DNA from: a virus
Lineage: Duplodnaviria > Caudoviricetes
IMG/VR virus record: IMGVR_UViG_3300044998_001165
Coordinates: 1-51,939 of that record
DNA: 51,939 nucleotides
Reading direction: 5' to 3' (one strand)
Part shown: positions 1,228 through 38,795 of the stretch, in pieces
Layout: each line of letters begins with the position of its first letter
How positions within the stretch are numbered: position 1 is the first letter of the stretch
Program-made: the position numbers and the translations under genes
Notes under the pieces: generated by a model
Database searches by the model: none
Seen by the model: only the letters and a program-made list of their open reading frames with translations
What the model was told of the DNA's origin: nothing

Positions 1228-1476
1228 TCAACTGTTTAATTTTACTTGACACAAAGCATTATCACTATAATAGCCGTTCTTTTGTTGCTCTAAGAAAGCC
1301 ATCAAATCATCTTTCTTCCACAGCCATTTTTTGCCCAGCTTAATAGCCGGAATGCGCCCTTCCCGCGCCCAACGGGTCAGCTTTTGACCGTTCATGTTTG
1401 GTAAAATCGCCTGCACACCGACAATATCGAGGTACTCGGTCTCCTGCTTGGGGGGTATTCGCTTGTTTACACTCAT
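1228..1476 (-). CDS. Excisionase-like/MerR-type HTH DNA-binding protein
   Basis: YLDI...LTRWAREGRIPAIKLGKKWLWKKDDL is a typical HTH_17 signature; ATGA overlap with the tape measure stop. Confidence 0.8.
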   Translation of the reverse strand: MSVNKRIPPKQETEYLDIVGVQAILPNMNGQKLTRWAREGRIPAIKLGKKWLWKKDDLMAFLEQQKNGYYSDNALCQVKLNS

Positions 1477-18363: not shown

Positions 18364-21300
18364 TCACCCACACCCTTCTATAATCTCACAGAACGCCTTT
18401 TTCTTAACCTTAATGTCAATCCACCAATTATACCCAAACTCTGAATTTTGATCGATTGTCCCATCAAATGTATATTCGACGTTATCAATCAAAAAGGAAG
18501 GGGCGGTAAGGATGTTTAAGAACCGTTTAACTACGTAGGGAGGCATTCCATCCAAAACTAACCGGTAAACCTCCTGACCCGTACTCGAAATTACCCGCCC
18601 GTTTTCCTCCTGCCGGGTAACTTCGTAAGAATCGAATAGTAGATACCCATTCATGCGTAACCGCTCAATATGTTTGAATGGCGTTCCGATAAATTGATCT
18701 ACTAAGCCGTAAAAATGACCACTGCAATCCGAGTCCGTTAGTGCCTCAAAAACCATCGTTTGCTCACAACAACCATTCGTTTTACGATAGAGCGGACTAT
18801 AAATGACTGTTTCACGGGGCAAGGTTCGGAAAGTGAACCGCAAAAAGAAACAATTAGGCAGAAATTCGGTATTGACTTCGATGCCTTGGTAAGTCCGTTC
18901 CGTTTTGCGATCACGCCCAACATAGTAACGCAATGCCAAACTGCTTAAAGGAACTATGATGTTACCGTCAGGATCAATCGCCTCGACTGTGGCAAACCAA
19001 TTCCCGCTTTTCGTTTCCTGCCAACCCGCTGTCGGTGCGGTATCATAATCATTGATTCGATCAGGGATGTTAAATTGAAAGTACAGTTTTTCGGGTTCTG
19101 TGCCGCAACATAGATCATAAACTTTCGGAGGTGGCGGGTCTATAATATCCGGGCAATCAGCCGGGGGGGAACAGCATTCATTAGAAATTATCTCCCAGTC
19201 CAAACCCGAATAGTTAGCAACATTTGGGCAAAAACGGATGCCGTCCTTACATATGTCAGAATTAAAAACACGTTGCCAAGCTGAACGGGATGTTGTGATT
19301 GTAAGTATCCCTTCATTGGCATTAACAGATTCATAAACCAACTGTCCTCCGTAATTGGTAGGCCAGAAATTAAGATTATGGATTGCTACGAAATTGTTAA
19401 AATAGGTTGTAAAATCAGTATTGCGATAATCATCTATCCGGATTTGCCACCAAAAAGAATTATACCCCGCCTCACCTGTTGCCACACAGGGACGATTCGT
19501 AGCCTCTAAAGGTAAACCAACATGATCCCCGCCCGTGCCAAATACCATCCCATTATTTCTTACCCGAATTTTGATGACGTTCTTATCAGGATCGGGGCAG
19601 GGTTTGCCACAATCTTCTCCGCAACAAAGCGGTTGTTGCGTGATCTCTATCGTCGCATTTCCAACCAAATCCGACACGATTCCTACGCTACACACTTTGA
19701 AGGTCAAAGTACAGAAATCAACTCCTTTTTGTGCTAACCACCAAGCCCGAGAAACGCGAATACGCATTCGGTTACCGGTTACAGTTACTACTTGATTAGG
19801 CGCATCGTTCATCGTGCCTACAAAAGACTGTAAGACGGAATTAAGTGAGGGGAATGTTGAATAATCCTCAACCGAAAAAACAAAATAAGGGTCTCCCGGA
19901 GAAGGCGTTAAGGAAACGGGACAAGTCGTATTAAACGGCACTAAAGCCCATGCCACGTTATCATTTTCATCGGGGACTAAATTACGTAATTCAAACTCTA
20001 AATCCGCGTAAGCACAGCCTTCCGGCGGACAGCATTCGGGTTGCTTGGAAACGTTAAGGTCTAAGGTTTGGACGGGTAACGGACTACTCTCGGATATAAA
20101 CGGACAACACCAATCCGATATGATTTCAACCGGAACAGTCTGCGCGTCCGGCGTGGTTGTGCCAAAATCGGTTAGATTGTTATAGTTTAAATAGTTTGAT
20201 CCTGAACTACTCTCCACTGCTATTTGAACCACCGGTGTGCAGGGCAATTCAGAACAGGGCAGATAAAAGAACAACTCCGTAGGGTCTCCAATACTTTGGG
20301 TAACGTAGTGTAGGGGAGAAAGAGCCTCCCAAGCGGTTATCAAATTTGTAATAAACTCGTCAATATCTGCCCCCGAATCAACCGTTATTGTTTCATAAGT
20401 AACGGGCATTGTAGCAGAGCAGGTAGCCTTAAAGTTCACGGTAACACTTTCCGATGCCAATCCAAACACAACATTAACCCTTGTGTAAAACATACAAACA
20501 GGGGTAGCCGATTGCGTGCAAGCAATCCATGATGCTAAACAGAGGTTATAACCAAAAAGCGTTTGAAAATTGGCAACATTGTAAGTTAAACAAAAGATGT
20601 TTCCGTTTTGGCTAATACTTGAACCTCCGCCTATCGTCGTAGCTAAGTCTGAAAAAAACGATGCGACTATAACTTTGTATTCATCAAAATCAGCAACCGA
20701 CGCAATGCTTAACTCCGGGATAATCGGTGGATCACAAGGCAGTGAATCCGGTTGTAAAAAAAATGACGCGTCGGTATTGGGGTTTCCATATTCAAAATTT
20801 GCACCAACCTTGAAACATAGTTGTGCCATACCCGCACCAATACTTTGGCAATTACCCGGACAGCATTCCGTTTCTGCCGTAAATAAATAAGGATCGCCTG
20901 TGCCTGTTAATTGCAAAGTAGCCGTTTCGCCGCAACAAGTTGCCGGCATAGGCATTTGAATCGTGATAACGTTCGTTCCATTGGTATGTATTGATGTAAT
21001 GCCATTATCGGTGTATGTGGTGCTTTGTAGTGCTAAATGGAGTTCATCTGCATAATCAATACCGGAAGGTTGTAATTCAACGATTGCATCTAAATCTAAA
21101 GAAAAACATGGTGAAAACGGATCGCCGATATACATATAAAAACCGTTTAGCGTATCGCCAACATCTGGGTCTCCGATCGTAAACGTAAAACGCGCATAAC
21201 CGTCAGGAACGGAGGTACAAGGTTCGGCAGGACAGCATTCTACCACCCCAAACGCAGTATACATCCCCTCGTAAGATTCTACAGTAAAACTACTTCCACA

Positions 21301-23367
21301 ACAATCCCCATCCCATTCAATATATAACAATTTACCGTTTGTTGATGCAATTAAATTAACAGATTCTTTGACTGCAATGATTGTCGCATCAAAACAATTA
21401 TTTATCCAATCTGCAATATTTTGAGCTAATGTAAATGGATTTGAATCATAATTGGGAAAACAAAGGGTTGATGCACTCATATCTAACGCCAAGCATCCAA
21501 AAACGTTAAATATTGCCGGCAGATCGTTTACATTTACATAATCCTGCATATCTAAAACAAGGCGCATTCTGTCTGAAGGCACCGCGCATTCGTTGGTATG
21601 ATAACCCGCTTGGCACAGCGAAAAAGTCCGCGTACAAAGATCAATCCCCAGATTTTGGATAAAGTATTCCGCATCCAAAAAGAAATAGATCGTCCCGAGA
21701 GCTTCATTCAGCACCAGATAAGAATTACCTAAGACTTCATAAATACTACGTAGGTAGTTGTAAACATTTGCCAAGTATTCACTAAAATTACCCGCTTCTG
21801 ACATCCGCATTTGGGTCGGAATATCATTCCAATTTACACCTCCGCAAGTCAGGTTATCAATCAGTCCCCGAATGACAAAACCCGCATCGTTAAAAGGATT
21901 ATTCCAAACGTAATCCGGGTCATTTTTAATGGTGATTTGAGCCTTTGCGAAGCCCACCGGACAGGCATCTGTATCCGTTGACTGCCCCTCAACCGGACAG
22001 CAATAGAGTTCTGTCGAAACCGTGAATCCCGATAAATCGCCCGAGCATTCGCAGACTTTCCAAGTGTCTCGACACCAATCCCGCTTACTTAAATCAAGGT
22101 AGATATAAAAGCCTTGCGTCGGATCAGATGGGTTGACGTACTCGATGTATGAACTCCCGAAATGTTGCGGGAAAGCGGGAAATAATTCGGCTTCCAACCA
22201 TTGCTTTAAGCGATTATTGGTATCTAAATGCGTTGGGGGCTGAACGCAGGGCAACTCGCTTAGGGCATCGCAATCCAGAAAACCCGGAATAAAACGATAT
22301 GTACCCAATCCCCCGGGGTATGGTGGGAACGTCTGCACTTTTAGCCGAGCGTACCCGTCGGGGAGGATGCAGGGTGCATTGACTTCCGCCCGATTACCGC
22401 ACTGCATAAAATCTTCGGGGTTTACCTCAAAGCAAAAAAACGGCTGGGTGATCGTTGGCGGGAAGCCTGAGAATCCGGTAAAGGAGATGCTCGTACCATT
22501 CGCACAAGAACATCCCGGGAAGTCTGTTGGCGAAAGGTAAAAGGCTATTTCCCGCTCATTGGCTCCGTTTTTGAAGTAAACCAAGTCCGAATTCACATAC
22601 AGCGACCGAAAGTAGCCTTGTAAAGCTCCGAAAAAGAAATCAACGTCATGCGGACCCGCCCCCCAAAGGTCGAGCATCATTTCGCCCAAGTCAATAGTGA
22701 TACCGCACCCTAAGTCTATGCGAATCGGTTGGGAAGTAATGTCATCAAATTGATAATTGCCTGCACCGATTTTGAAGGAGAAAACGTTAGTTGCCGGACG
22801 CGAAACAGGGGGAACAACGCCTGTAATACAATCACAATTAAAAACGGCATCAGGCGTACCAATACCCGATCGCACCATAGAAACGGTTTGAAGCGTACAA
22901 TCACATTCATCCAACCAACGTTTATTCAAATAAAATTTAATCGTCGTATCGTCCGCAACCGCAAAAGAAGGAAAGAACCGACGATTGAACTTGGTGATGA
23001 TGTCTAATTGCAGTTCTTCGGTGGTATTGCCTGACGCATTGATGTAAAATGTTCTGCCACAGGGATTAAGGGTAATGCTATTCAAAACGCCCACTTCGCC
23101 CCTGCCTACCGAAACCCCTAAAGTCAGCACTTGATAACAGCAATCCACTGCACCCAAACCGGGGGCAACAAAGCAAGGCGCGCAAACCGGAATCGCAAAC
23201 AACTCGCCTCCGTTACAATCGCCCGTGAGGATTTCTTCTAAGGTCAATCCCTGCTGAATCGCGCCATTATTGCAGTCAATTTTTAAGGGCAGTAGTTTGA
23301 TGGCTGTATCCGAACCGTTGCTTACAACCGTATTCGGAAGCGGATATTTATAGGTATTGGTAGGCAT
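18364..23367 (-). CDS. Giant Cys-rich repeat-containing tail protein (possible evolved distal-tail/receptor-binding protein)
   Basis: 1667 aa, last gene of the tail-tip operon, recurring C..PDGYA / ECC motifs. Confidence 0.65.
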   Translation of the reverse strand: MPTNTYKYPLPNTVVSNGSDTAIKLLPLKIDCNNGAIQQGLTLEEILTGDCNGGELFAIPVCAPCFVAPGLGAVDCCYQVLTLGVSVGRGEVGVLNSITLNPCGRTFYINASGNTTEELQLDIITKFNRRFFPSFAVADDTTIKFYLNKRWLDECDCTLQTVSMVRSGIGTPDAVFNCDCITGVVPPVSRPATNVFSFKIGAGNYQFDDITSQPIRIDLGCGITIDLGEMMLDLWGAGPHDVDFFFGALQGYFRSLYVNSDLVYFKNGANEREIAFYLSPTDFPGCSCANGTSISFTGFSGFPPTITQPFFCFEVNPEDFMQCGNRAEVNAPCILPDGYARLKVQTFPPYPGGLGTYRFIPGFLDCDALSELPCVQPPTHLDTNNRLKQWLEAELFPAFPQHFGSSYIEYVNPSDPTQGFYIYLDLSKRDWCRDTWKVCECSGDLSGFTVSTELYCCPVEGQSTDTDACPVGFAKAQITIKNDPDYVWNNPFNDAGFVIRGLIDNLTCGGVNWNDIPTQMRMSEAGNFSEYLANVYNYLRSIYEVLGNSYLVLNEALGTIYFFLDAEYFIQNLGIDLCTRTFSLCQAGYHTNECAVPSDRMRLVLDMQDYVNVNDLPAIFNVFGCLALDMSASTLCFPNYDSNPFTLAQNIADWINNCFDATIIAVKESVNLIASTNGKLLYIEWDGDCCGSSFTVESYEGMYTAFGVVECCPAEPCTSVPDGYARFTFTIGDPDVGDTLNGFYMYIGDPFSPCFSLDLDAIVELQPSGIDYADELHLALQSTTYTDNGITSIHTNGTNVITIQMPMPATCCGETATLQLTGTGDPYLFTAETECCPGNCQSIGAGMAQLCFKVGANFEYGNPNTDASFFLQPDSLPCDPPIIPELSIASVADFDEYKVIVASFFSDLATTIGGGSSISQNGNIFCLTYNVANFQTLFGYNLCLASWIACTQSATPVCMFYTRVNVVFGLASESVTVNFKATCSATMPVTYETITVDSGADIDEFITNLITAWEALSPLHYVTQSIGDPTELFFYLPCSELPCTPVVQIAVESSSGSNYLNYNNLTDFGTTTPDAQTVPVEIISDWCCPFISESSPLPVQTLDLNVSKQPECCPPEGCAYADLEFELRNLVPDENDNVAWALVPFNTTCPVSLTPSPGDPYFVFSVEDYSTFPSLNSVLQSFVGTMNDAPNQVVTVTGNRMRIRVSRAWWLAQKGVDFCTLTFKVCSVGIVSDLVGNATIEITQQPLCCGEDCGKPCPDPDKNVIKIRVRNNGMVFGTGGDHVGLPLEATNRPCVATGEAGYNSFWWQIRIDDYRNTDFTTYFNNFVAIHNLNFWPTNYGGQLVYESVNANEGILTITTSRSAWQRVFNSDICKDGIRFCPNVANYSGLDWEIISNECCSPPADCPDIIDPPPPKVYDLCCGTEPEKLYFQFNIPDRINDYDTAPTAGWQETKSGNWFATVEAIDPDGNIIVPLSSLALRYYVGRDRKTERTYQGIEVNTEFLPNCFFLRFTFRTLPRETVIYSPLYRKTNGCCEQTMVFEALTDSDCSGHFYGLVDQFIGTPFKHIERLRMNGYLLFDSYEVTRQEENGRVISSTGQEVYRLVLDGMPPYVVKRFLNILTAPSFLIDNVEYTFDGTIDQNSEFGYNWWIDIKVKKKAFCEIIEGCG

Positions 23368-24125: not shown

Positions 24126-27100
24126 TTAATGATTTACCCATGCCGGCAACGTGCCGACCGGAAAAGTTGCTTTGGGACGAATCCCGAAATTATGTAGTTG
24201 AGCGGGGTTGTTGTAAGGTGAGGTATCCGGCGCAATGATTCGACCTTCCGAGCCATTCGCACTACCAAATAAACTACCATTATCCACCCCGTTTTCATTC
24301 AGTCGCCAACGTCCAACCAAGTTCCCTGCCGGCGGAATACCGCCTAAGTTGTAGTTGTATAGTCCAAATACCTCGGAGGCACTCAAAGCCTTGTTATATA
24401 AGAGGATTTCGTCCAACATACCCCACAAACTCAAGTTCTTTGCCGAAACGGGACATTCAGAGAACCTCCCCTTGTTTTGATTACCTGCCCAAATCGGAAA
24501 ACCATAGTTCAAATTTTGGCTATCTGTGCCACCACTACCGGTGGTGTCGGACGTAGTCGTCGTCAAAAGACAGCCATTGGCATACAGTTTCCATTTTGTA
24601 TTGATAGTTCCCGGATCACGAACGGCGCAGAAGTGATACCACTGCCCATAATTCAGCCTCAAATTACCGGAAGTGATTTCTAATGCTTGCCCGGTATTTT
24701 TATGAATGACAAATTTCAATGCCCAAATATTGGCTGATATGTATCTCAAATAAAGCCCCCAACCCCGCCAAGAGGTACACCCCCCCGGCAACGCCGATGC
24801 AAAGCCCATCGAGCCGATTAGCCACTGCTCCTCCACCAAATCGAAAGCGTCTTTTTTACCTGACAACTTGGCAAAAAGAGCAACGGAAAAGGGATTTGTG
24901 CCGAAATTATAGGCAGAAATGGGCGGGATAACTAACGTATTATTGTCGGGATAATCCTCTTTATCAAGGTATTGCGGAATAAAAAATAAGGCATTGCCCA
25001 GCGGTTCGTTAGGAAAGGGAATCGCATTATTACACAACTCAACCGATTTACGAATTAACCTGTCGGACGCATCCTTAACCTCCACTGTATAAACATTATT
25101 CGGCGGTAAAGCCCCGGCATAAGCCGTTAATGATTGTGGCATATTATTCCATTTGTAAGTATAGGGAGGTGTTCCACCGGACGGTACGGCTACGATTTGC
25201 CCGTTAAATGGACATGCGGTAGCGGTGTTACAAGTTACATTCAAGGCAACCTGAAAGCCCTGTGCTTTCCGAATTGCGCCTACTCGATACCGACGATCGG
25301 TTATCAAAGCGGGTGCTGAAATCTTTGCTTTGGCAATATGGGTAGCATTATCAAACTGCAAATCGGCACTGACTAAGGGCGATTCGGAAAGGCGGGCTAA
25401 TAAGCCGGAGTAACTTTCGTATTCCTTAACATTAGGAAGAGAGAATATCTCTTTGTCGGTTATGGCTATAAAATTCGCATCGGTAGAATTATTTAAGTCA
25501 GTGACCTTGACATAACAATCCGTTCCGCCGGAGCAAAAAACACGTAACGGATCGCCGTTTTGTTCCTGTAATTCAATCGTCATCGTGGTTTCATCAAAAG
25601 CCTTAACCGCAACCACTTGCGTAAAGATTAATTCATCTTGAAACGAAATAGGGTTTTGATAATCCAAAATGAATTTATATTCCACGTAAATTGTCTTACC
25701 TGTCCAATCTTGATTCCCATTTGCCGGAGCTACGGGCGTTTGGGATGACTCAATTAGCGTTACGACATTAGCAGTATTCTGTTCCGAACGAATGCGAAAC
25801 GGGTATTTCATCTGCATTTCATAGGAATAGGGGTCTATATTGACCTCACCCTTACCGTTGGCATTCCAAGTTCCGTTCCCGTTCCCGTTTCGGGTAAAGG
25901 AGTGCTTTTCAACTACCTGCCGATAAATGCTTTCCAGATAGTATAACGATACCTCAATCCGTTGCAAAGCGGCAAACCATCCGCCCGAAAAAGCTATCCT
26001 TTTGGCATCATAAACATTGTAATTAACGCTCAATTCAGATTCTAAACGCTCGTAAGGGGCGCATTGAATTGCGTTACCGTATTCGGAATTGTAGTCCCGA
26101 AGCATTCCGGTAATCAATGGCGGGATAAGCGGTGGTGGAGTGTCGGCGGTAAGTGATGAAGAGATGAACGAATAGGATGCCAGTTTGTTTACCGCTTGCT
26201 CATAATTAACGACTACAATTACCCTATAACTTGCGCCCGGGGTTAACTGTGAGGCTTTTATGATAAACTGGGTGCGCCAAAGGTCTCCGACAACATTAAA
26301 AAGCTGAAAAGAAGGCGAATACAATACCGTCCCCCCGCCCCATTGGGTATAAAGTCCATAAGGTACTGGTAAAGGGACATTACTGCCCGAATTGGGTACA
26401 GTAGCGATGTCGGCTTTAATTGCCTGCAAAAAAGGCTGACCGTTCACTGCTCCCTCTTGAATGATCCAAACTACGACATGGGGGTTCGATTGTGTAGTAC
26501 GGCATTCAAAACGGAGTGCCGTATCTTCAAAAGCAGATATGCCCGTAACCGGCTGATTGTTTCGCAAAAGCGTAAAAGACGGATTGGCAACCAAGGTGGC
26601 TACCCCACCGTATTCATCTGAATTATACCAGCGTTCCGTTACGGTCTGATCGGCTTTACCATAACTCCAAACGGGGCGCGTTGCGGGCGGAATCGGGGCT
26701 TCTTTGAAGTAAAGCGACAGTCTAAGCACCCGATTGGTGTTGAAAACAGCTGTGCCGTTATTTTCTAACAGATCAACAGCATTAATGCTATTAAATAATA
26801 ACCGCCTGCTATTCCGCACAGACGATAGATAACCGTCCACATCCTCCAATAATGCAAAAGTGCCAACAACCTTAATCCGCAGGTTGCCCGCCTGCTCCTC
26901 AAATATAATAGACCAAATGCCCGGACGGGCTTCCTGTTGCCCAACGTAATCCAGTTGATAGGCGGTATTCAGCGTTTTACCCGTTGATTCTGCATAAAAA
27001 TAATTCCCCGACGGTGAGGACGGGTTTTCTAAAGCAAAGCCGGGCGGAAGAAACAGCCCGAAATTGAGGAAAAACTCTCCATCAGGGGCGGGATCAAGCG

Positions 27101-27233
27101 GGGCTTGGGCTTTGTCGGTATCAAAAACAGCCTCAAAACGGCATAAATTACCGATAGAAAGCATCCGAACACCCGCAACGGGCGTGCTTTCGGAAATTTG
27201 ATAAACGGCTAATGAAGTTGCGGTATATAACAT
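24126..27233 (-). CDS. Tail protein with SprB-type repeat and C-terminal LamG/ConA-like lectin domain
   Basis: GQIVAVPSGGTPPYTYKWN...YTVEVKDA; GQWYHFCAVRD...KLYANG...GMLDEILLYNKALSASEV. Confidence 0.8.
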   Translation of the reverse strand: MLYTATSLAVYQISESTPVAGVRMLSIGNLCRFEAVFDTDKAQAPLDPAPDGEFFLNFGLFLPPGFALENPSSPSGNYFYAESTGKTLNTAYQLDYVGQQEARPGIWSIIFEEQAGNLRIKVVGTFALLEDVDGYLSSVRNSRRLLFNSINAVDLLENNGTAVFNTNRVLRLSLYFKEAPIPPATRPVWSYGKADQTVTERWYNSDEYGGVATLVANPSFTLLRNNQPVTGISAFEDTALRFECRTTQSNPHVVVWIIQEGAVNGQPFLQAIKADIATVPNSGSNVPLPVPYGLYTQWGGGTVLYSPSFQLFNVVGDLWRTQFIIKASQLTPGASYRVIVVVNYEQAVNKLASYSFISSSLTADTPPPLIPPLITGMLRDYNSEYGNAIQCAPYERLESELSVNYNVYDAKRIAFSGGWFAALQRIEVSLYYLESIYRQVVEKHSFTRNGNGNGTWNANGKGEVNIDPYSYEMQMKYPFRIRSEQNTANVVTLIESSQTPVAPANGNQDWTGKTIYVEYKFILDYQNPISFQDELIFTQVVAVKAFDETTMTIELQEQNGDPLRVFCSGGTDCYVKVTDLNNSTDANFIAITDKEIFSLPNVKEYESYSGLLARLSESPLVSADLQFDNATHIAKAKISAPALITDRRYRVGAIRKAQGFQVALNVTCNTATACPFNGQIVAVPSGGTPPYTYKWNNMPQSLTAYAGALPPNNVYTVEVKDASDRLIRKSVELCNNAIPFPNEPLGNALFFIPQYLDKEDYPDNNTLVIPPISAYNFGTNPFSVALFAKLSGKKDAFDLVEEQWLIGSMGFASALPGGCTSWRGWGLYLRYISANIWALKFVIHKNTGQALEITSGNLRLNYGQWYHFCAVRDPGTINTKWKLYANGCLLTTTTSDTTGSGGTDSQNLNYGFPIWAGNQNKGRFSECPVSAKNLSLWGMLDEILLYNKALSASEVFGLYNYNLGGIPPAGNLVGRWRLNENGVDNGSLFGSANGSEGRIIAPDTSPYNNPAQLHNFGIRPKATFPVGTLPAWVNH

Positions 27234-32329: not shown

Positions 32330-33469
32330 TTACCCCTCAATACTCTCACTAATCACGATCGGCATCAGTAACATCAGCAACTCCTCATTGCTTTGATTGT
32401 ATTCCGGCAAGACCACGGCTGCGCGGGAAGGGGTATCCAATTCCAAGGTTACCTCTTCGGAATCAATGTTGTTCAGCACCTCCGTCATCAGTGAAATATT
32501 GAACCCGATTTCAATTGCCTGCCCTTCATAGATACAAGAGATTCTTTCACGACCTTTGTTACCATCCAAATTATCAGAAGAGACCAACACTTCCGATTTA
32601 TGAAACGCAAATTTTGCCAAGCGATCTCCCGCATTAGCATAGTTTTTCAAGCGTTTTATGGTGGATAGCAAAAATCCTTTTCCAATCATTGCTTGGTTCG
32701 GACTGGATTTCGGGATGACGCTTTCATAATCCGGGAAAGTAGCGTCAATCAGTCGGCACACTAATAGTGTACTGTCAATATAAAAGAAGGCATTCCGGTC
32801 GGTGTATTGTAAAATGATGTCTTCATTTGCGTTGGTGCAGGCGTTTTTGACCAACTTCAAAGCCTTGGCTGGCAAAATAAAATTGGCGGGTTCATTCGCC
32901 TTAATATCCGTGCGCCGACATCGCACTAAGCGGTGCGCATCTGTAGCAACAAAGTCCGCATACTCCATTCCGAATTGAAAATATACCCCGGTTAAGGCGA
33001 GCTTCATTTCATCAGTTGAAACCGCAAAAATCGTTCGATCAATAATAGCATTCATTACATCGGGATTGATGGTAATGGAATGCGTCTCATCCGCTTTGGT
33101 GAACCGCGGGAAGTCCGCTCCATCCCTGCCGGTAATGTCATACTCCCCGTTATTGGTGATGATTTTGACAATCGGCGAAATGCTGTCCGGTAATAATTGA
33201 AATGTTAGCTCCTGCTCCGGTAATGCCTTAAGGGTATCAAGAATGATTTTGCCGGGCAAGGCTATGTTAAATATGGATTTCGGATCACATTCCACCGATA
33301 GCACGGTTTGCATCATGATCTCCATATCGGTAGCTGTCAGGAATAATTGTCCTTCCTGTACCTCAAAAAGAATATTGGCAACGATCGGCAAGACGGGCTT
33401 GGAAGGCACTGTTCCCAAAATTATGCCGAGGCGTTTTTGTAATTCGGATGACGAAACAGTGAATTTCAT
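32330..33469 (-). CDS. dnaN: DNA polymerase III beta subunit (sliding clamp)
   Basis: MKFTVSS...PVLPIVANILF...TATDME, ATDAHRL, CRLIDATFPDYESVIP, IGFN, LLMPI; full three-domain length. Confidence 0.95.
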   Translation of the reverse strand: MKFTVSSSELQKRLGIILGTVPSKPVLPIVANILFEVQEGQLFLTATDMEIMMQTVLSVECDPKSIFNIALPGKIILDTLKALPEQELTFQLLPDSISPIVKIITNNGEYDITGRDGADFPRFTKADETHSITINPDVMNAIIDRTIFAVSTDEMKLALTGVYFQFGMEYADFVATDAHRLVRCRRTDIKANEPANFILPAKALKLVKNACTNANEDIILQYTDRNAFFYIDSTLLVCRLIDATFPDYESVIPKSSPNQAMIGKGFLLSTIKRLKNYANAGDRLAKFAFHKSEVLVSSDNLDGNKGRERISCIYEGQAIEIGFNISLMTEVLNNIDSEEVTLELDTPSRAAVVLPEYNQSNEELLMLLMPIVISESIEG

Positions 33470-34002
33470 GTGTTGGAAGTATTTAAGTACCAATCAATTA
33501 GGGTTCTAAAATCATCATACTTGCGTATGACTTTAACAAGGTAGTTTTGAGCAGTGAGCAAGGCGTGTACCTTACGCTGTTCCGCATCAGGATAATTGCC
33601 GGGCATCTTAAACTCAACAAATAATCCTCCGTAGCTATGGGAAGCCACATTGACAGCGAGGTCGGGATACCCATCTGTGTACCCCGATTCTTTCGCTTTA
33701 TAATTTCCGTATCGAGAACTTTGGTTTCTAGTATGACAAATGACTACATCTGGATAAGTGTTGCGAAGCCATTTGACGCACTGGGTATGCAAAGCGTGTT
33801 CATCTGACATTGACTTTTGTGCCGCTAAGTCGTGATCTACGTTCGTATAAAGTTCTCTTTGTTCTGACGTAATAACAACAGGGGAATCCGATATAGGCAT
33901 ATCAAACAGGGCATGAAACTCCTTTTTAGTCAGGCGTTTCGTTGATGAGGATTTCTTTTTACCCCCCGAATATGCGTGAATGTAGCCCTTTCTTTTAGCC
34001 AT
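33466..34002 (-). CDS. VRR-NUC domain nuclease
   Basis: EHALHTQCVKWL...GYPDL...GLFVEFK...EQRKVHALL PD-(D/E)XK pattern. Confidence 0.85.
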   Translation of the reverse strand: MAKRKGYIHAYSGGKKKSSSTKRLTKKEFHALFDMPISDSPVVITSEQRELYTNVDHDLAAQKSMSDEHALHTQCVKWLRNTYPDVVICHTRNQSSRYGNYKAKESGYTDGYPDLAVNVASHSYGGLFVEFKMPGNYPDAEQRKVHALLTAQNYLVKVIRKYDDFRTLIDWYLNTSNT

Positions 34003-34259
34003 TAAGCAACTTCATTATAGGTCTCGATAAAAATATCGGGCTTACAGGGATAGAATTCCCCTTTAAGTCCTTTGATTACGTAGTCCCCTTTAGAGACTGT
34101 CATTTCGCCCTCAAGGGTTCGGATCGTTAACCGCCCATTCACGTTAATAAATGCCTGCCCTTTGCAGAAATCGAGGATTTCATCCGTATTCCTGCCTTCG
34201 CCGGTGTATTCTATCGCCTCGATGACGATTGGATTTTTGATATACTTTTTTACTGACAT
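34002..34259 (-). CDS. Conserved small phage protein (TLEG...GDY...GEFYPCKPDIF family)
   Basis: KNPIVIEAI, IRTLEGEM, GDYVIKGLKGEFYPCKPDIFIETY. Confidence 0.85.
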   Translation of the reverse strand: MSVKKYIKNPIVIEAIEYTGEGRNTDEILDFCKGQAFINVNGRLTIRTLEGEMTVSKGDYVIKGLKGEFYPCKPDIFIETYNEVA

Positions 34260-34261
34260 AG

Positions 34262-34366
34262 TTATTTATTACTGATTAATTCGCGTAAACAATAGATGAG
34301 CAAGAACAAGGTGAAAGAGCCGAAGGGCAGGGTGATTAGGAGTAAGAGTAGTTCTTTAGGAAACAT
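34262..34366 (-). CDS. 34-aa single-TM peptide (not in ORF track)
   Basis: MFPKELLLLLITLPFGSFTLFLLIYCLRELISNK; TAATG coupling to the upstream gene and fills the gap exactly. Confidence 0.6.
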   Translation of the reverse strand: MFPKELLLLLITLPFGSFTLFLLIYCLRELISNK

Positions 34367-34773
34367 TATTTGACCAACTTAAGTTTGCCGTTCTCGAATC
34401 TTTCCTTTGAACGTTGCTCAACACACGAACGCGCGGCGTATAAATGAGAAAGAGCCAAATTGTTTGACGGATCGGGGAATTGACCATTCAGTTTAGCAAT
34501 CCGGTCAATGAGTACATCAAGAACTTGTATATCAATCACACCACTAACCATTTCTTTATCGTCAATACGATGAAAAAACGTAAGTTCCTGTAAAGACTCA
34601 CTTTCCACCCAATGACCGTCTTCATCACGTCCGTTAAGATTTGAAATGACATACCGATGTGCGCCACCATATTCATCAGTGGCAACCTGTACGGTATTTT
34701 GCAGGAATCCATTTACCACCGGAGCAGTATAATTACGGGACTCGACCGCTAAATTGTTTTTAATCAATTTCAT
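34366..34773 (-). CDS. Tad1-like anti-defence (cyclic nucleotide/gcADPR sponge) protein
   Basis: GGAHRY...F...GV...QVLDVLIDRI..LN..FP...N..AL..L..A......R..ER..NG follows the Tad1 pattern as recalled; several positions diverged. Confidence 0.6.
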   Translation of the reverse strand: MKLIKNNLAVESRNYTAPVVNGFLQNTVQVATDEYGGAHRYVISNLNGRDEDGHWVESESLQELTFFHRIDDKEMVSGVIDIQVLDVLIDRIAKLNGQFPDPSNNLALSHLYAARSCVEQRSKERFENGKLKLVK

Positions 34774-34785
34774 ATATTTAGGTAA

Positions 34786-35052
34786 TTATTTGAAAGTATT
34801 AACTATTTTCCACTTCTTCTTAAATTCAGCCAAAGGAACTACCGATAGATTTCGATGTTCGTCTATCAAGATATAATCTCCATAATGCGCCCCTTGCTCA
34901 CCTTTATTAGTTTGAACCATCAATGTATAATCTCCTGCTAAATGAAGTGGAACTCGAGCCTTGCCTTGACAAAACTCTAAAACTTGGTTTAGGTTTTCAT
35001 AGCGAAATTCAAGGCACATATGTGTAAATGTTTTCCTCCTACTTGCCATCAA
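34786..35052 (-). CDS. Divergent paralog of 34002-34259
   Basis: Shared EFCQGKA/DFCKGQA, L.V.T..GE....GDYI/V, F...W/Y pattern. Confidence 0.7.
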   Translation of the reverse strand: MMASRRKTFTHMCLEFRYENLNQVLEFCQGKARVPLHLAGDYTLMVQTNKGEQGAHYGDYILIDEHRNLSVVPLAEFKKKWKIVNTFK

Positions 35053-35532
35053 TTATCTCCTCATTACAATAAAAAATATGACCAACACCAACAAAAAACC
35101 AAGTATCCCTATCGTAACCCAAGCCCAAATCGGAACGCGAACAGCCTCCTTGATAATCAGTTTTGGCGGGCGTAATTCAGTGCTGAAGATGGTCGCAATA
35201 CCTTTGGGAACATAAACCGTTTTTGTTTCGGAGGGGCAAATCGCCTCCACCCGAAAAGTTGAATCGGTTAGTGGATGGATATAGATATTCTTATTCGCAA
35301 TCAATTTGGGTCTGTAATACGCCTTATTGGTCAACGTGTCAACCACTTTTTGAATAATCAGCGAATCAAATAAGCTACGCTCTTTGATCAATACTTCTAA
35401 CGTAGTGTCGCGGTATTCGATCCGCTTGGTCGTATCAGCTTGCCACAAACCCTCATAGAGATCATTACACCTTTCGAGGGAAGGGCGACAGGATGCTATA
35501 ACCAATACTGAAAGTATAATTAGGTATTTCAT
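35053..35532 (-). CDS. Putative unimolecular spanin
   Basis: N-terminal lipobox (LVIAS-C15) plus C-terminal TM helix ending in RR, the T1 gp11 topology. Confidence 0.7.
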   Translation of the reverse strand: MKYLIILSVLVIASCRPSLERCNDLYEGLWQADTTKRIEYRDTTLEVLIKERSLFDSLIIQKVVDTLTNKAYYRPKLIANKNIYIHPLTDSTFRVEAICPSETKTVYVPKGIATIFSTELRPPKLIIKEAVRVPIWAWVTIGILGFLLVLVIFFIVMRR

Positions 35533-35544
35533 ATTGATTGTTGT

Positions 35545-35682
35545 TTAAGGTTTAGGATTCGGTCTTGCCAACTGCCCGATTAAGCCCTGTTTGGTAATCC
35601 CAGCCGAGTTGACCGGGATTACTATTATGTTGGCTTTGGGATCGTCGAAGATGTTACCCTTCTTTTGGATTATTGTTCCCAT
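35545..35682 (-). pseudogene. Truncated macrodomain remnant
   Basis: MGTIIQKKGNIFDDPKANIIVIPVNSAGITKQGLIGQL matches the macrodomain N-terminus, then stops at 45 aa. Confidence 0.6.
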
Positions 35683-36404
35683 ACCTGCATTCCACTTAAT
35701 CGTTGATAGCATTTCATCGTTGCGATTACGTCCTGCTCGCAATAGGCTGCGATTACGTCCTGCTCGCAATAGGCTGCGATTTCCTCGATCCGTCCATCCC
35801 AATAAGCCTGCCCAACCTGAGAGCCGTCCATATTGGTTTTAGGCGATTCAATGCCTAAGTTATAGCACAATTGATCGAGCGTAACAAACGAGTCTCGTAT
35901 GTTACCGAATGCCCACATGTCTTGTGTATCCAACACTTTTACCGTCCAAGGTTTATCATCTTGTTTCGGTGTTTGTGGAAGACGGGGCATATTAAGGATA
36001 AACGAACGCCGAGAGAGGTAGGGTAGATCAAATCCCTTCATATTGTGTCCCAATAGCCAAACGCCTGTCGGATCGTCTTTTTTACCCTGCATCAGCCGTT
36101 TTACTATGCTGACCAACTCACGCACAATATCAGCTTCACTTCCGACTATCTTTTTGGTATGATATTTTGCGTTTTTCTCATCCATGAAGCCGGTAACTGC
36201 ACAAACAATCTGCCCAAAACCACGATCAGCAAAAAGAGCTGATCTGTCAGTATAGCTTTCTTCGGGTGAAGCATAATCCTCTGCGAAACACTGTTCATGT
36301 TTCCGAGTCCACAACTCCTGCACTTTTTGCGGTGCTTCAGATAGGGATGGATACGCAGGAGCTGTTTCGAGGTCAAAACAAATAATGTTTGAATAAGGAA
36401 TCAT
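35670..36404 (-). CDS. PolB-related DEDDy 3'-5' exonuclease (start ATG 36404)
   Basis: ExoI CFDLET, ExoII GHNMKGFDLPYL, ExoIII YCEQDV (duplicated). Confidence 0.9.
   Translation of the reverse strand: MIPYSNIICFDLETAPAYPSLSEAPQKVQELWTRKHEQCFAEDYASPEESYTDRSALFADRGFGQIVCAVTGFMDEKNAKYHTKKIVGSEADIVRELVSIVKRLMQGKKDDPTGVWLLGHNMKGFDLPYLSRRSFILNMPRLPQTPKQDDKPWTVKVLDTQDMWAFGNIRDSFVTLDQLCYNLGIESPKTNMDGSQVGQAYWDGRIEEIAAYCEQDVIAAYCEQDVIATMKCYQRLSGMQVWEQ
35721..35781. repeat. 27-bp in-frame tandem duplication
   Basis: TGCGATTACGTCCTGCTCGCAATAGGC x2 plus a partial copy; encodes IAAYCEQDV twice. Confidence 0.95.
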
Positions 36405-36434
36405 AATTAAGGCACTAATTTTGATTTGAAAACT

Positions 36435-36442
36435 CAAAAATA
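36435..36442 (-). promoter_or_regulatory. Bacteroidota -7 box (TATTTTTG)
   Basis: Exact TAnnTTTG about 30 nt upstream of the exonuclease ATG. Confidence 0.55.
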
Positions 36443-36541
36443 TAGCAGATTTCGGCAGAGTTTGCTACTTGTCATATAAATAAGATGCGTCTACCGTGCC
36501 TGATAGACGCATTCCACACCCTCAAACTGATCGGTAATCTT

Positions 36542-37267
36542 TTATAGCGTTTGTAACCATGCCCGCTGATTGAACGGGTCTCGGGTCTCAATATTTTTCA
36601 AAGAGATGCCAATCTTTGCGCAGAAGTCCGGCACCCAAAACGAAGGGCAGGCTTTGTTGTGTACCTGATTATGACCGACAACTTTGATGTCGGGACACTG
36701 GCGGATCACTTCCTTGATGATCTTTGCAAAAGATGCCTCCTGTTCGGTTGTCATGGTATTTTTCGGATTCTTATACGCCGCATCCATGCCACCGATGTAG
36801 CAAATATGAACGGAAATAGGATTCCACTCCGCCGCGCCGTAGGTAATTTCAAAGGGTTGGAAACCGTCCGTCAAGTTCACATCCCACGTGTTCACAATGC
36901 GCCCATCGTATTCTACGATTTTGCTGTAACCCGGTCTGCCCCATTTGAGCGTCTCCATATGATAGCGAACGATCTGATCTGCATTCACCCCAGCCGATCG
37001 CTCCGGTGTGGCAGAGCAATGGAGCATCAGGTATTTCGGCATCGTCTTGGGGGCAAGAGCTATCAAGCCCAACGCCTGCAAAGTCTGTGATCCGACGATT
37101 CCGTCTTGTGCCAAGCCTTTTTCGCGTTGAAAGGCTAAAACGACGGTACGGGTTTCCTCGCCAAACCATCCGTCCACCGACAGTGCGTAGCCCCGCTTGC
37201 GAAGCTCGTTTTGGAGTGCGCGAACTTGATCGCCCACTGATCCGAATTTTAAGATTCCAAAGGTCAT
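36542..37267 (-). CDS. Endolysin: PG-binding domain plus N-acetylmuramoyl-L-alanine amidase (Amidase_2)
   Basis: VRALQNEL..VDGWFGEET..FQREKGLAQDGIVG; LHCSAT, ICYIGG, VGHN, KACPSF zinc ligands. Confidence 0.93.
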   Translation of the reverse strand: MTFGILKFGSVGDQVRALQNELRKRGYALSVDGWFGEETRTVVLAFQREKGLAQDGIVGSQTLQALGLIALAPKTMPKYLMLHCSATPERSAGVNADQIVRYHMETLKWGRPGYSKIVEYDGRIVNTWDVNLTDGFQPFEITYGAAEWNPISVHICYIGGMDAAYKNPKNTMTTEQEASFAKIIKEVIRQCPDIKVVGHNQVHNKACPSFWVPDFCAKIGISLKNIETRDPFNQRAWLQTL

Positions 37268-37277
37268 ATTTCATTTA

Positions 37278-38795
37278 TCATAAAGCGACAATACTCATTT
37301 TACTACTTTTAATTTCAACCGTTACGGGATCAGCATTCGTATTGTTACTAATGTACAATTCAAACGAGTCAGGAAGAGCGGGTGGTGAATTATAAGAACA
37401 GGTCGTTTCTGTCATACAGACTGCCAATGCACCCTTATCCGTTGTGTAAACCCGACACTCCGAATTCGGAATCACAACCCCGTTTTTAGCGATGAATAAT
37501 GACACGGATGTTGTACTGCCGTCGGTTGGGGTGAGGTAAGCAACTGCCGTTATCTGTACACGGATAGGCGTGCGAACGTTGTAAGTTAGCTGGTTATCGT
37601 TATGTATAAAACCACGGGAACTGATAAGGGTTGTTTGCCCATTGGCTTTTACAGGACTTTCCGGGGGCAATGGCATCGGAGCAGGTGCGGAATCTAAGAA
37701 ATTGGTCGGTGAAGAGGTGGTGAAGTAATAAGAAGCAGAAGCCCTACTATCTTCAACACCATGATTTGCCCGGTTGAAGATAATCGGGTTATCAAAAGTA
37801 ACCCCGTCAAACACAAGCCCGCCACCGTCAAAATCACATCCAATTATTTTGAACTTATGATCCCCTGATGGTAATATGTTAAACGCATTAAATTGTGTAG
37901 CAGGATCAAGGTAAATACCCGTCGTCCCTGCGGGAAATAAACCTTTACAGCCTGCAAAATCCATCCACAACCCAATTGAGGTGGTGGAGGTGGTATAGAT
38001 GTATTGAGGTGCGCTGTTAAAGTTAACTAACCCAATACGGTCAAATAGAACCGTTCCGCAAAAACCGTCTATTTCCAACCCGACTGAAAAACCTACAAGT
38101 GATCCCAATAAACCAAAACGCGTGGTATTGATATTTGCAATCCTACCCAAGTCTCCTCCCGGAGCTATGAAAAAACAGCCCGTTATGAGTAATTGCTCTA
38201 ATCCGTCCACATCAAACAATGTGAAATTGGTATCATTAAAATTTACTTGGATGTTATCGATATGCAACACCCCGCCGGTATTGGTCGAAGTGATAAAAGT
38301 ATCTCCGTCTGTTACACTACTTTGGAAAGTCGTAATAAACGTCCCCTGTCCGCGTAACGCACAAAATTGCGGACAGACCAATACATTATTACCTAAGTTA
38401 AGCGGTCCGGGCGCGAACTCATACAGCGTTTGATTCTGAAGGGTGATAACATTTCCCACAGGTTCGGGCAAATCTGCTAAACTATTCACATGAACCACGT
38501 AATTTAACGGAACGTCGTTTATGTTCGGCATCGTTACAAAAGGCACAGCTCCTGTCCAAGCTGTTAACAATGCCACATCCGCATCCCGCGCCGTATTGTC
38601 TGCATAATCCTCTAATTGAAACTGCCCCTGTGAATTGCTGAAAATTAACACATTGTCATAAAACGTAATAATTTCCGGCACATCGGCTTTATCAAAAGTA
38701 TGCAGGCTAACAACCGCCGGACTGGTCTGCCGAAGGGAAAACGTGGTCGGCGATTCGTCGTGTAGATCGTGTGTAAGCCGTGAATAAACAAGCAT
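37278..38795 (-). CDS. Putative structural fibre/decoration protein, beta-rich
   Basis: 505 aa; VNSLADLPEP..NVITL then a beta-helix-like region and a jelly-roll-like C-terminus; located in the virion operon. Confidence 0.5.
   Translation of the reverse strand: MLVYSRLTHDLHDESPTTFSLRQTSPAVVSLHTFDKADVPEIITFYDNVLIFSNSQGQFQLEDYADNTARDADVALLTAWTGAVPFVTMPNINDVPLNYVVHVNSLADLPEPVGNVITLQNQTLYEFAPGPLNLGNNVLVCPQFCALRGQGTFITTFQSSVTDGDTFITSTNTGGVLHIDNIQVNFNDTNFTLFDVDGLEQLLITGCFFIAPGGDLGRIANINTTRFGLLGSLVGFSVGLEIDGFCGTVLFDRIGLVNFNSAPQYIYTTSTTSIGLWMDFAGCKGLFPAGTTGIYLDPATQFNAFNILPSGDHKFKIIGCDFDGGGLVFDGVTFDNPIIFNRANHGVEDSRASASYYFTTSSPTNFLDSAPAPMPLPPESPVKANGQTTLISSRGFIHNDNQLTYNVRTPIRVQITAVAYLTPTDGSTTSVSLFIAKNGVVIPNSECRVYTTDKGALAVCMTETTCSYNSPPALPDSFELYISNNTNADPVTVEIKSSKMSIVAL

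Follow-up and report, generated by a model that had tools for sequence, protein, structure and literature searches.

A divergent Tad1 homologue encoded between two paralogous members of a widespread, sponge-associated domain family: a candidate counter-defence cassette in an uncultured tailed phage

The window analysed here is the whole of a 51,939-nucleotide stretch of DNA from an uncultured tailed phage (Duplodnaviria; Caudoviricetes; IMG/VR record IMGVR_UViG_3300044998_001165). Between positions 34002 and 35052 it carries four tightly packed open reading frames (ORFs), all on the minus strand, and we confirm the four-gene arrangement and the coordinates that an original prediction, made from the sequence alone, had assigned to them:

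A, 34002..34259, minus strand: 85 aa, with the C-terminus ...GEFYPCKPDIFIETYNEVA; canonical member of the GEFYPCKPDIF / phrog_419 (PGDYG-like) family.
34-aa ORF, 34262..34366, minus strand: a single hydrophobic, transmembrane-like stretch with the core LLLLLITLPFGSFTLFLLIYCL; exactly fills the gap between T and A.
T, 34366..34773, minus strand: 135 aa; divergent Tad1 homologue.
C, 34786..35052, minus strand: 88 aa; strongly diverged paralogue of A.

The stop codon of T overlaps the ATG of the 34-aa ORF in the sequence TAATG, two bases lie between the stop of that ORF and the ATG of A, and the ORF of C begins one base beyond the stop of the upstream 159-aa gene. It is from this packing that we infer the 34-aa ORF to be a gene and its peptide to be expressed; it has no family match in Pfam or PHROGs, and a related locus (L082, described below) has no equivalent directly after its Tad1 gene. 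An alternative ATG at 35049 would shorten C to 87 aa and the gene caller of the protein collection took a 77-aa form, but the homology of C to its family, as aligned by hhalign, starts upstream of the 77-aa start and the 88-aa or 87-aa form is therefore favoured. In the window the ORFs lie between VRR-NUC/DnaN and a 3'-5' exonuclease. A scan of positions 33300-37500 for promoters and terminators gave counts equal to those of shuffled sequences, and 10 kb of the window found no match among phage records by megablast.

The 135-aa protein T is a genuine but divergent member of the Tad1 family, and the Tad1 motif pattern that had been read from 34366-34773 is borne out by both sequence and fold. 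A phmmer search of 177,635 PDB sequences matched residues 26-129 of T (104 residues) to five sequences of CbTad1 with E values of 9.2e-6 to 1.2e-5, amongst them entries 7uav, 8kbe and 8kbg, the next match after the Tad1 set standing at E 0.54; amongst the PHROGs, T matches phrog_2428 (E 1.8e-7). The model of T (pLDDT 83.5) consists of a beta-sheet, with strands within residues 28-66, and after it two long helices that span 81-98 and 102-127; a beta-sheet plus two C-terminal helices is also the Tad1 fold described in 10.1101/2023.11.15.567273. With this model Foldseek gives 15 matches in the PDB at E <= 0.001, every one of them to CbTad1 or CmTad1 (TM 0.55-0.69; best E 1.8e-7; identity to CbTad1 21-25%), and a structural match to Tad1, to which the original prediction had tied its fate, is thus present. 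The family motifs YGGAH, LIDR..KLN..FP and R...R can all be found in T. Its relatives number 94 among 1.84 billion representative sequences, and T belongs to a subclade of five members that carries an invariant N-terminal motif of its own, AVESR..T.P. No match to T was found in 50,697 phage records by tblastn, and scanning viral contigs and metagenome contigs with a single protein brought up no close relatives with flanking DNA; a search of contigs with the subclade alignment found one related lineage (L082, identical to L084) and, weakly, one further locus (L083).

To consider which signals T might bind, we mapped its pocket residues by eye, using the phmmer alignment to CbTad1 and the residues named in 10.1101/2023.11.15.567273. 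In CbTad1, according to that source, the pocket for gcADPR and cyclic dinucleotides is made by F82, N92, R109 and R113. Three of these four are identical in T (N92 = N104, R109 = R121 and R113 = R125) and are invariant across the five-member subclade, while F82 is replaced by L95, a residue that is nearly invariant in the Tad1 family and hence typical of it. The residues R90 and T97, which the same text assigns to the cyclic-trinucleotide pocket and to the building of the hexamer (a trimer of dimers), correspond to P102 and S109 in T, and P102 is invariant in the subclade. Since a minority of Tad1 homologues are reported there to be substituted at the cyclic-trinucleotide residues, these changes do not exclude T from the family; because R90 and T97 also build the hexamer, however, the assembly of T may differ from that of CbTad1. 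On this mapping T looks to have kept the gcADPR/cyclic-dinucleotide pocket and to have lost the cyclic-trinucleotide site. The proposal that the diverged Tad1 binds other signals is upheld insofar as an altered ligand range is suggested, but a new ligand is not what the pocket residues point to; they point to a narrower range.

The proteins on either side of T had been described as paralogues, one canonical and one highly diverged, and the alignments agree: A and C match one another directly (BLASTP E 5e-7) and the family profile aligns to C with a probability of 91.6% (hhalign, E 8.4e-7). When all six-frame ORFs of the window were searched with the family profile (hmmsearch), only A (E 2.4e-39) and C (E 4.7e-5) were found. 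In PHROGs, A falls in phrog_419 (E 2.1e-30), and C matches phrog_10664 (E 9.5e-5), phrog_4159 (E 5.8e-4) and phrog_419 (E 2.1e-3). The block of residues that is invariant in the family comprises, in the numbering of A, E50, G51, D59, I62, G64, G67, E68, Y70, P71, K73 and F77, with D75 nearly so; by eye, C keeps 3 of 13 invariant positions and has no GEFYPCKPDIF motif, and a search for its homologues in a collection of 5.8 billion sequences returned only C itself.

The family is also as widespread as had been supposed. It occurs in 853 of 50,697 phage records, and all 1712 candidate homologues of A score at E <= 0.001; phages of Bacillus, Gordonia, Streptococcus, Escherichia and Cellulophaga carry members that are 50-60% identical to one another, and Mycobacterium phages and the BASEL coliphages are also amongst the carriers. 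Neither A nor C has a Pfam family at E <= 1, though 56 of 101 family members show a weak match, at best E 0.0022, to PF14083 (PGDYG). In Gordonia phage DatBoi, the label 'MazG-like' on gp51 is an annotation carried over onto a bare 84-aa domain. A full-text search of the literature found neither 'PGDYG' nor 'phrog_419' in any paper.

The AlphaFold2 model of A is of high confidence (pLDDT 92.6) and has a beta-alpha-beta5-alpha order, with strands at 14-17, 36-38, 44-48, 51-54, 60-63 and 69-72 and helices at 24-31 and 74-80. It has no match in the PDB at E <= 0.001 by Foldseek, and VIA-align, run against 48,161 chains, reached a Z of 3.8 at most, with no chain at 5 or more, so that neither search matched its fold to that of any solved sponge; a search of PDB sequences with the family profile is likewise empty at E <= 10. 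The 66 matches of the model in BFVD at E <= 0.001 are solely uncharacterised or 'PGDYG' proteins. A is predicted to form a homodimer, with a score of 0.54 against 0.00 for the best control, an agreement of contacts between runs of at least 95% and a partner pLDDT of at least 87; among proteins of solved structure, 20 of 30 that are pairs of one chain attained the mark set for this score, as did 1 of 23 that are single chains. The predicted interface is formed by residues 1-17, 24, 27, 31 and 79-85, and the invariant block lies outside it.

A link between this family and the known sponges is found in its fusions and its neighbours. Four of the 94 Tad1 representatives (P0138, P0175, P0203 and P0207) carry the domain at the N-terminus of Tad1, with profile E values of 2.3e-15 to 6.6e-34, and among the 31 Tad1 N-terminal extensions of at least 60 aa the domain ties as the largest BLAST cluster. 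We also examined the neighbourhoods of the domain in the best-scoring 80 of 554 IMG/VR loci, near-duplicates included, in a scan that covered the selected neighbours save for 13 of 299. In one of these 80 (L019) the domain is fused to PF21825, or Sequestin (E 2.9e-22); in two (L024 and L042) a Tad1 gene lies directly upstream of it with a gap of 6-8 bp; in another (L050) the gene directly upstream encodes an Acb2-type hairpin protein (E 2.6e-24); and PF21825 (L023, L038, L074) or Tad2 (PF11195; L054) stands no more than two ORFs away. Counted in this way, a known sponge is fused to the domain or lies within two genes of it in 8 of the best 80 of 554 loci, as a raw count, and no known sponge lies within two ORFs in the other 72; Lar (PF14354) is nearby in 4 of the 80. 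Beyond this set, the family fold is joined to PF24729 in an Atlas cluster that has 55 members, and the related locus L082 encodes a Tad1 that is 49% identical to T and, at a distance of 1.1 kb from that Tad1, a domain copy that is itself diverged (A1 profile E 1.4e-6). Neither Lockin nor any other known partner was found in 12 long domain-bearing ORFs searched against PHROGs, or in those of L066, L053 and L015 searched against PDB sequences, and the 18 ORFs around the domain in Bacillus phage SIOphi are all hypothetical and without a sponge Pfam. The fusions of the domain to Tad1 (4 of 94) and to Sequestin (1 of the best 80 of 554 loci) are new here; a literature search for Tad1 fused to domains of unknown function showed, among the papers listed, none that describes this family.

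There is a precedent for reading such fusions as a sign of function. Tal et al. (10.1101/2025.07.12.664507) came upon the sponge Sequestin (PF21825, related to crAss001_48) because it occurs fused to Tad2 and Acb4; a short length, homo-oligomerisation and fusion to sponges already known were the traits that predicted it. Known sponges are described there as binding at the interfaces between protomers, where a positively charged pocket lies. The methods of PMC12393519, the only text we found that joins '6E3C' and 'sponge', record the removal of sponge proteins that bear 'PF21825 or PDB 6E3C' as recurring extra domains; as 6e3c is a weak match of both the model of A and the family profile (scores below), the 6E3C domain meant there may be the flanking family. 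By analogy, a sponge role of the flanking family is plausible. The earlier suggestion that these proteins are anti-defence sponges as well gains support from association (fusions to Tad1, Sequestin and the Acb2/Tad1-hairpin; Tad2, Acb2, Tad1 and Sequestin as neighbours) and from the predicted dimer.

We consider it rather probable that the locus is a small counter-defence unit, composed of Tad1 and two copies of a widespread sponge-associated domain. Such a cassette would sit amid the replication genes of the phage, in one operon with them. From its homology and its pocket residues we infer that T would most likely be a homo-oligomer that hides the Thoeris signals 1''-2' and 1''-3' gcADPR in a pocket at the dimer interface, and might also bind 2',3'- and 3',2'-cGAMP, so that the host effector would never be switched on; cyclic trinucleotides it would probably no longer bind. 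The flanking domain would be an independent module that phages have repeatedly placed beside, or fused to, several unrelated sponge families, and it would most likely serve as one more means of anti-defence, in which a homodimer acts on a small molecule that is conserved, or on another invariant target in the host, the specificity of the diverged copy C having probably been changed or lost. A bolder version, in which the GEFYPCKPDIF/PGDYG-like domain is an eighth sponge family or an enzyme that destroys signals, and the cassette a three-part silencer of several signals with C retuned to another of them, is possible but, in our view, doubtful.

The first alternative, which we hold to be unlikely, is that anti-defence activity belongs to Tad1 alone. 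The flanking family would then serve promiscuously as a structural piece or an adaptor: small, rich in beta-strands and able to dimerise, it would tether or oligomerise its partners, or attach to a protein of the phage or the host, and would not itself bind immune signals. The partners of the domain are indeed many and unrelated: besides Tad1 and Sequestin they include a pyrophosphohydrolase of the PRA-PH/MazG type (Microbacterium phage Pajaza gp41, E 4.4e-17), WDGH (L062), DUF551 and a Lar-like domain. By our reading, about 13 of the best 80 of 554 loci place it in a head-morphogenesis module, with portal, MuF or minor-capsid genes on one side and scaffold genes on the other, and the position of the invariant block, off the predicted dimer interface, would also suit such a module. 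The domain may moreover be kin to the OB-like domain of the Dec protein of phage L (6e3c), which residues 9-84 of the model of A resemble over chain residues 17-90 (Z 3.0, rmsd 4.0, 59 aligned; Foldseek E 1.4) and which the family profile aligns with in a register consistent with the structure (A 53-85 with Dec 58-92; hhalign E 0.055). This likeness, however, lies below any mark of significance, the probability of the profile alignment being about 1%. Against the adaptor role stands the fact that a stand-alone form of 80-100 aa is by far the commonest, with 66 of the best 80 of 554 loci encoding it in an ORF of less than 125 aa, which argues that the domain has a function of its own; furthermore, an identity of 50-60% between phages of different host genera is easier to reconcile with a ligand that does not vary than with a protein partner that evolves fast.

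The second alternative, a distinctly unlikely one, places the flanking family in nucleotide metabolism and not in immunity, either as a small enzyme or as a regulatory subunit, in partnership with MazG-type pyrophosphohydrolases, dUTPase, ThyX and similar enzymes, its adjacency to Tad1 reflecting a shared placement in accessory or early regions. The Pajaza fusion would be accounted for in this way, as would the annotation of phrog_4159 as 'nucleotide pyrophosphohydrolase', the dUTPase (L019, L059), the ThyX and UDG (L039, L058, L043) and the RusA encoded nearby in the best 80 of 554 loci, and the position of the cassette between VRR-NUC/DnaN and the 3'-5' exonuclease; the invariant E50, D59, E68 and K73, with the near-invariant D75, could form a catalytic or metal site. 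Left unexplained, however, are the direct fusions to three sponge families and the two independent pairs in which Tad1 precedes the domain by 6-8 bp, and at least one 'MazG-like' label, that of DatBoi gp51, is a carry-over.

It is, finally, highly improbable that the flanking proteins are distant sponges of the Acb4 family (PF13876), a relationship that had been put forward for testing and that the comparison speaks against, for though their size is similar (85-88 aa against 96 aa) and Acb4, too, is phage-borne, widespread and found fused to sponges, PF13876 is absent at E <= 1 from the matches of A, of C and of 101 family members, the family profile found no PDB sequence, and the beta-alpha-beta5-alpha order of A differs from that of Acb4, in which N-terminal helices, three antiparallel strands and two C-terminal helices make up a dsRBD-like core. 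The matches listed in the fold searches of A hold no Acb4 entry, which does not by itself exclude an unlisted family.

If the flanking domain is anti-defence, as the preferred reading of the cassette as a counter-defence unit would have it, the consequences extend well beyond this phage. A review of October 2026 (PMC13712596) counts seven characterised sponge families; two of the newest came to light by their fusion to families already known. This signature of fusion is seen in the flanking family too, which is amongst the commonest unannotated small domains of phages; because it has no Pfam model, fusion screens based on Pfam are blind to it. An inhibitor would then have gone unrecognised in hundreds of model phages (those of Bacillus, Mycobacterium, Gordonia and Streptococcus, and the BASEL coliphages), affecting both the prediction of host range and the reading of defence assays. 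We regard the domain as a promising new candidate among counter-defence proteins. T, for its part, extends Tad1 into a divergent subclade that appears to be without the trinucleotide site and would offer a natural test of separating the two Tad1 pockets.

Set against known systems, the flanking family resembles phrog_419 and, weakly, the PGDYG family (PF14083), both of unknown function; A has no match to PF14083 at E <= 1 and so none above its gathering score, and the flanking family is likely a sister group of PF14083, outside the curated model. With the N-terminal OB-like domain of Dec it shares a weak likeness in a consistent register, all scores being below significance, and Dec has a C-terminal trimer spike where A has none. 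Acb4 is likewise small, phage-borne, widespread and found in sponge fusions, without likeness in sequence, profile or topology. Sequestin, as Tal et al. describe it, offers a parallel in habit, the flanking family being likewise short, mostly stand-alone, phage-borne, recurrently fused to sponges and a predicted homodimer, but Sequestin is alpha-helical and the family mostly beta, and their sequences and folds are unrelated. Of the traits set out there for sponges, the family has three (it is short, a predicted homo-oligomer and sponge-fused), whereas an invariant block that lies off the interface counts against a pocket at the interface. T itself can be aligned with Tad1 (CbTad1, PDB 7UAV/7UAW/8KBE-8KBH; CmTad1, 8KBB-8KBD) over the whole domain and has the same fold and motifs; it differs in its low identity to CbTad1 and in its membership of a small subclade, and, by eye, it keeps N92, R109 and R113 of CbTad1, with R90 replaced by proline in all five members of that subclade.

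We find that the small domain encoded on both sides of a Tad1-like gene in this phage is linked, through its fusions and its gene neighbourhoods, to the sponges, phage proteins that sequester immune signals, and this link is the main new result of the analysis. The window spans a complete contig (51.9 kb) from an uncultured tailed phage, on which PHROGs matches identify a large terminase, a primase/helicase, a Mu Gam-like protein, a DnaN-type clamp, a 3'-5' exonuclease and an endolysin. No isolate phage has a large terminase more than 25% identical to this one, and the 10 kb surrounding the cassette gave no megablast match in phage records. Three very large minus-strand ORFs (1473-5627, 18364-23367 and 24126-27233; 1384, 1667 and 1035 aa) are scarcely annotated by PHROGs: the 1384-aa ORF alone matches a family, phrog_37298, of unknown function.

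Genes of the cassette and its surroundings
36542-37267, endolysin with PG-binding domain and amidase (phrog_822, E 3.3e-32)
35670-36437, minus strand, 3'-5' exonuclease gene
35053-35532, minus strand, 159-aa protein directly upstream of the cassette
34786-35052, minus strand, C, 88 aa, diverged copy of the small domain
34366-34773, minus strand, T, 135 aa, Tad1-like
34262-34366, minus strand, hydrophobic 34-aa ORF
34002-34259, minus strand, A, 85 aa, canonical copy of the small domain
33466-34002, VRR-NUC-like gene abutting the stop of A

The four cassette ORFs, all on the minus strand, are arranged end to end without spare room: C starts one base past the stop of the 159-aa gene, the stop of T overlaps the ATG of the 34-aa ORF in the sequence TAATG, and A follows that ORF after two bases. 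A promoter and terminator scan of the cassette region returned no more than shuffled sequence did. A 34-aa peptide translationally coupled between T and A had been proposed, and the case for it as a gene consists of how exactly it fills the gap and of these coupling signals; it matches no family, and the Tad1-bearing locus L082 has no conserved counterpart of it. At its N terminus the 159-aa protein has a lipoprotein-like signal (MKYLIILSVLVIASC, lipobox by eye) and at its C terminus a transmembrane stretch, the arrangement of a unimolecular spanin. In the 3' part of the exonuclease gene lies a perfect 27-bp tandem duplication (35721-35781; 2.3 copies, 100% matches), which repeats the peptide AAYCEQDVI in frame.

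T belongs to the Tad1 family as a new and divergent member. A phmmer search of all PDB sequences matched five CbTad1 sequences over query residues 26-129 (E 9.2e-6 to 1.2e-5), the next match lying at E 0.54, and T contains the motifs YGGAH, LIDR..KLN..FP and R...R found in an alignment of 51 short relatives. An AlphaFold2 model built from that alignment (pLDDT 83.5) consists of a beta-sheet followed by two long helices, and all 15 of its Foldseek PDB matches at E ≤ 0.001 are CbTad1 or CmTad1 (best E 1.8e-7; TM 0.55-0.69). The original prediction had named a Tad1-like middle gene and proposed a structural comparison, to be decided against it by the lack of a match; since Foldseek returns Tad1 alone at this threshold, both searches bear it out. 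An exhaustive phmmer search of 1.84 billion representatives found 94 relatives at E ≤ 0.001 and four at E ≤ 1e-10, a word-based search found three, and tblastn found none in 50,697 phage records, which places T on a sparsely sampled branch.

In CbTad1 the pocket for gcADPR and 2',3'-cGAMP is formed by F82, N92, R109 and R113, and that for cA3/cAAG by R90 and T97, which also build the hexamer (10.1101/2023.11.15.567273). By eye, from the phmmer alignment, T retains the N, R and R of the first pocket (N104, R121, R125) and has at F82 the family-typical, nearly invariant L95; it differs from CbTad1 at the second, where R90 is lost to P102 and T97 is conservatively changed to S109. Within a five-member subclade P102, N104, R121 and R125 are invariant, as is an N-terminal motif of its own (V10, E11, S12, R13, T16, P18). 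Our reading of this alignment is that the gcADPR/dinucleotide pocket would be retained and the trinucleotide site lost, T being most likely a gcADPR, and perhaps also dinucleotide, sponge.

A and C are members of a widespread, uncharacterised domain. A falls in phrog_419 (E 2.1e-30), without any Pfam match at E ≤ 1; it has homologues in 1712 cluster representatives at E ≤ 0.001, none carrying a functional name, and tblastn finds the family in 853 of 50,697 phage records, with hosts including Mycobacterium, Bacillus, Staphylococcus, Gordonia, Streptococcus, Escherichia and Cellulophaga (identity up to 56% among the 40 records listed). Thirteen columns are invariant in an alignment of 101 members (A15, E50, G51, D59, I62, G64, G67, E68, Y70, P71, K73, F77, Y81). 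PF14083 'PGDYG' is matched weakly by 56 of the 101 (best E 0.0022), and BFVD structural neighbours of A bear the same name. C is joined to A by hhalign against the family profile (91.6%, E 8.4e-7, 55 columns), by BLASTP (E 5e-7) and through PHROGs matches, as expected of the canonical and strongly diverged paralogues that had been predicted; a local profile search of every window ORF found these two copies and no other. By eye, C keeps three of the 13 invariant positions (G51, D59, F77) and has GEFYPCKPDIF replaced; a search of 5.8 billion clusters turned up no homologue of C. The family alignment begins at residue 7 of C, ahead of the 77-aa start chosen by the gene caller. A literature search found no paper characterising the family.

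The family may repeatedly occur as several paralogues in one phage genome, as in the window and in Arthrobacter phage Qui, which has four separate proteins with the A fold among the top 50 BFVD matches, one annotated 'nicotinate ribosyltransferase'. Gordonia phage DatBoi gp51 (MN908691.1, 1486-1740; L086) is labelled 'MazG-like nucleotide pyrophosphohydrolase', yet is a bare 84-aa PGDYG-like domain, and its label looks inherited from genuine fusions, for example Microbacterium phage Pajaza gp41, in which the domain is joined to a PRA-PH/MazG-type pyrophosphohydrolase (E 4.4e-17).

The A-family profile places the domain N-terminal to Tad1 in four of 94 Tad1 representatives (P0203, P0175, P0138, P0207; E 6.6e-34 to 2.3e-15). 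Among the 31 representatives with N-terminal extensions of at least 60 aa, mostly singletons without a family, these four tie for the largest BLAST cluster. Other Pfam partners on 53 long Tad1 representatives are YopX, RyR (two), an Rv2179c-like exonuclease and DUF6364; the RyR domains (PF02026, E about 1e-10) are N-terminal in P0188 and P0194. A 55-member ESM Atlas cluster unites the A fold with PF24729, the Acb2/Tad1 hairpin. The domain is promiscuous in its partners, which counts against the sponge link: besides Pajaza gp41, it is fused to WDGH at L062 and, by a weak match, to a Lar-like domain in P0105 (26.8 bits, below the cutoff of 28.6), and further ESM Atlas clusters pair the fold with DUF551 and with WDGH. 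No fusion to Lockin turned up among the domain-bearing ORFs searched for one.

Of 554 IMG/VR loci confirmed to have the domain, the 80 best supplied the gene neighbourhoods, near-duplicates included (for instance, L002/L003/L052 give near-identical rows, as do L039/L058). Pfam was scanned at E ≤ 1e-4 over 14 long ORFs that carry the domain and over the nearest neighbours on the same strand, at most two per side (286 of 299), and all ORFs were additionally searched with a Tad1 profile made here.

Sponge and Lar domains near the A-family domain
L019, Sequestin (PF21825, E 2.9e-22), fused to the domain
L024 and L042, Tad1, directly upstream of the domain gene with gaps of 6-8 bp
L050, 69-aa Acb2-type hairpin protein (E 2.6e-24), directly upstream
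L023, L038 and L074, PF21825, at most two ORFs away
L054, Tad2 (PF11195), at most two ORFs away
L033, L038, L047 and L074, Lar restriction alleviation (PF14354), at most two ORFs away

A known sponge domain thus occurs at eight of 80 loci, a raw, uncontrolled count from a sample that is not dereplicated, and Lar occurs at four. Against the sponge link, no known sponge is nearby at the other 72 loci, and head-morphogenesis modules house the domain at about 13, by reading of neighbour annotations. L082 and L084, the same phage in two collections, encode a Tad1 49% identical to T and, 1.1 kb away, a 178-aa protein with a diverged copy of the domain (E 1.4e-6). About 730 bp of L082 (4414-5145), between its Tad1 gene and the next genes, hold no convincing ORF.

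The A model (pLDDT 92.6; beta-alpha-beta5-alpha) has no Foldseek PDB match at E ≤ 0.001; VIA-align against 48,161 chains peaked at Z 3.8, with no chain reaching 5, and the family profile found no PDB sequence at E ≤ 10, nor did it match TadIV-1 as represented there. Kinship of the flanking family to Acb4, raised in the original prediction, is not borne out: PF13876 is matched by neither A nor C nor any of the 101 aligned family members, the order of secondary-structure elements in A is unlike that of Acb4, and the domain is distinct from it. The phage L Dec protein (6e3c) matches weakly by structure (Z 3.0, rmsd 4.0, 59 aligned; Foldseek E 1.4) and, in the same register, by hhalign (E 0.055, probability about 1%). 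The methods of one study state that sponge proteins also bearing 'PF21825 or PDB 6E3C' domains were removed (PMC12393519), and on these matches the '6E3C domain' named there may be the A family.

Sequestin is described as having been discovered via fusions to Tad2 and Acb4, and sponges as short homo-oligomers (Tal et al., 10.1101/2025.07.12.664507); the seven sponge families listed in an October 2026 review do not include that of A and C (PMC13712596). The domain shows the fusion and neighbourhood signature by which sponges have been discovered before, and a homodimer is predicted for it. Some part in anti-defence seems to us somewhat probable, and that the domain is itself a signal sponge or signal-degrading enzyme is a distinctly more doubtful proposal. 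The two-copy prediction for A scored 0.54 against 0.00 for the best control, passing a mark that 20 of 30 proteins solved as same-chain pairs attained, as did one of 23 solved as single chains, with at least 95% contact agreement between runs and partner pLDDT of at least 87. Its predicted interface is formed by residues 1-17, 24, 27, 31 and 79-85, so that the conserved K8, K9, P10 and Y81 fall inside it; against the sponge reading, the pockets of known sponges lie at protomer interfaces, whereas the invariant 50-77 block of A would lie off its predicted dimer interface.
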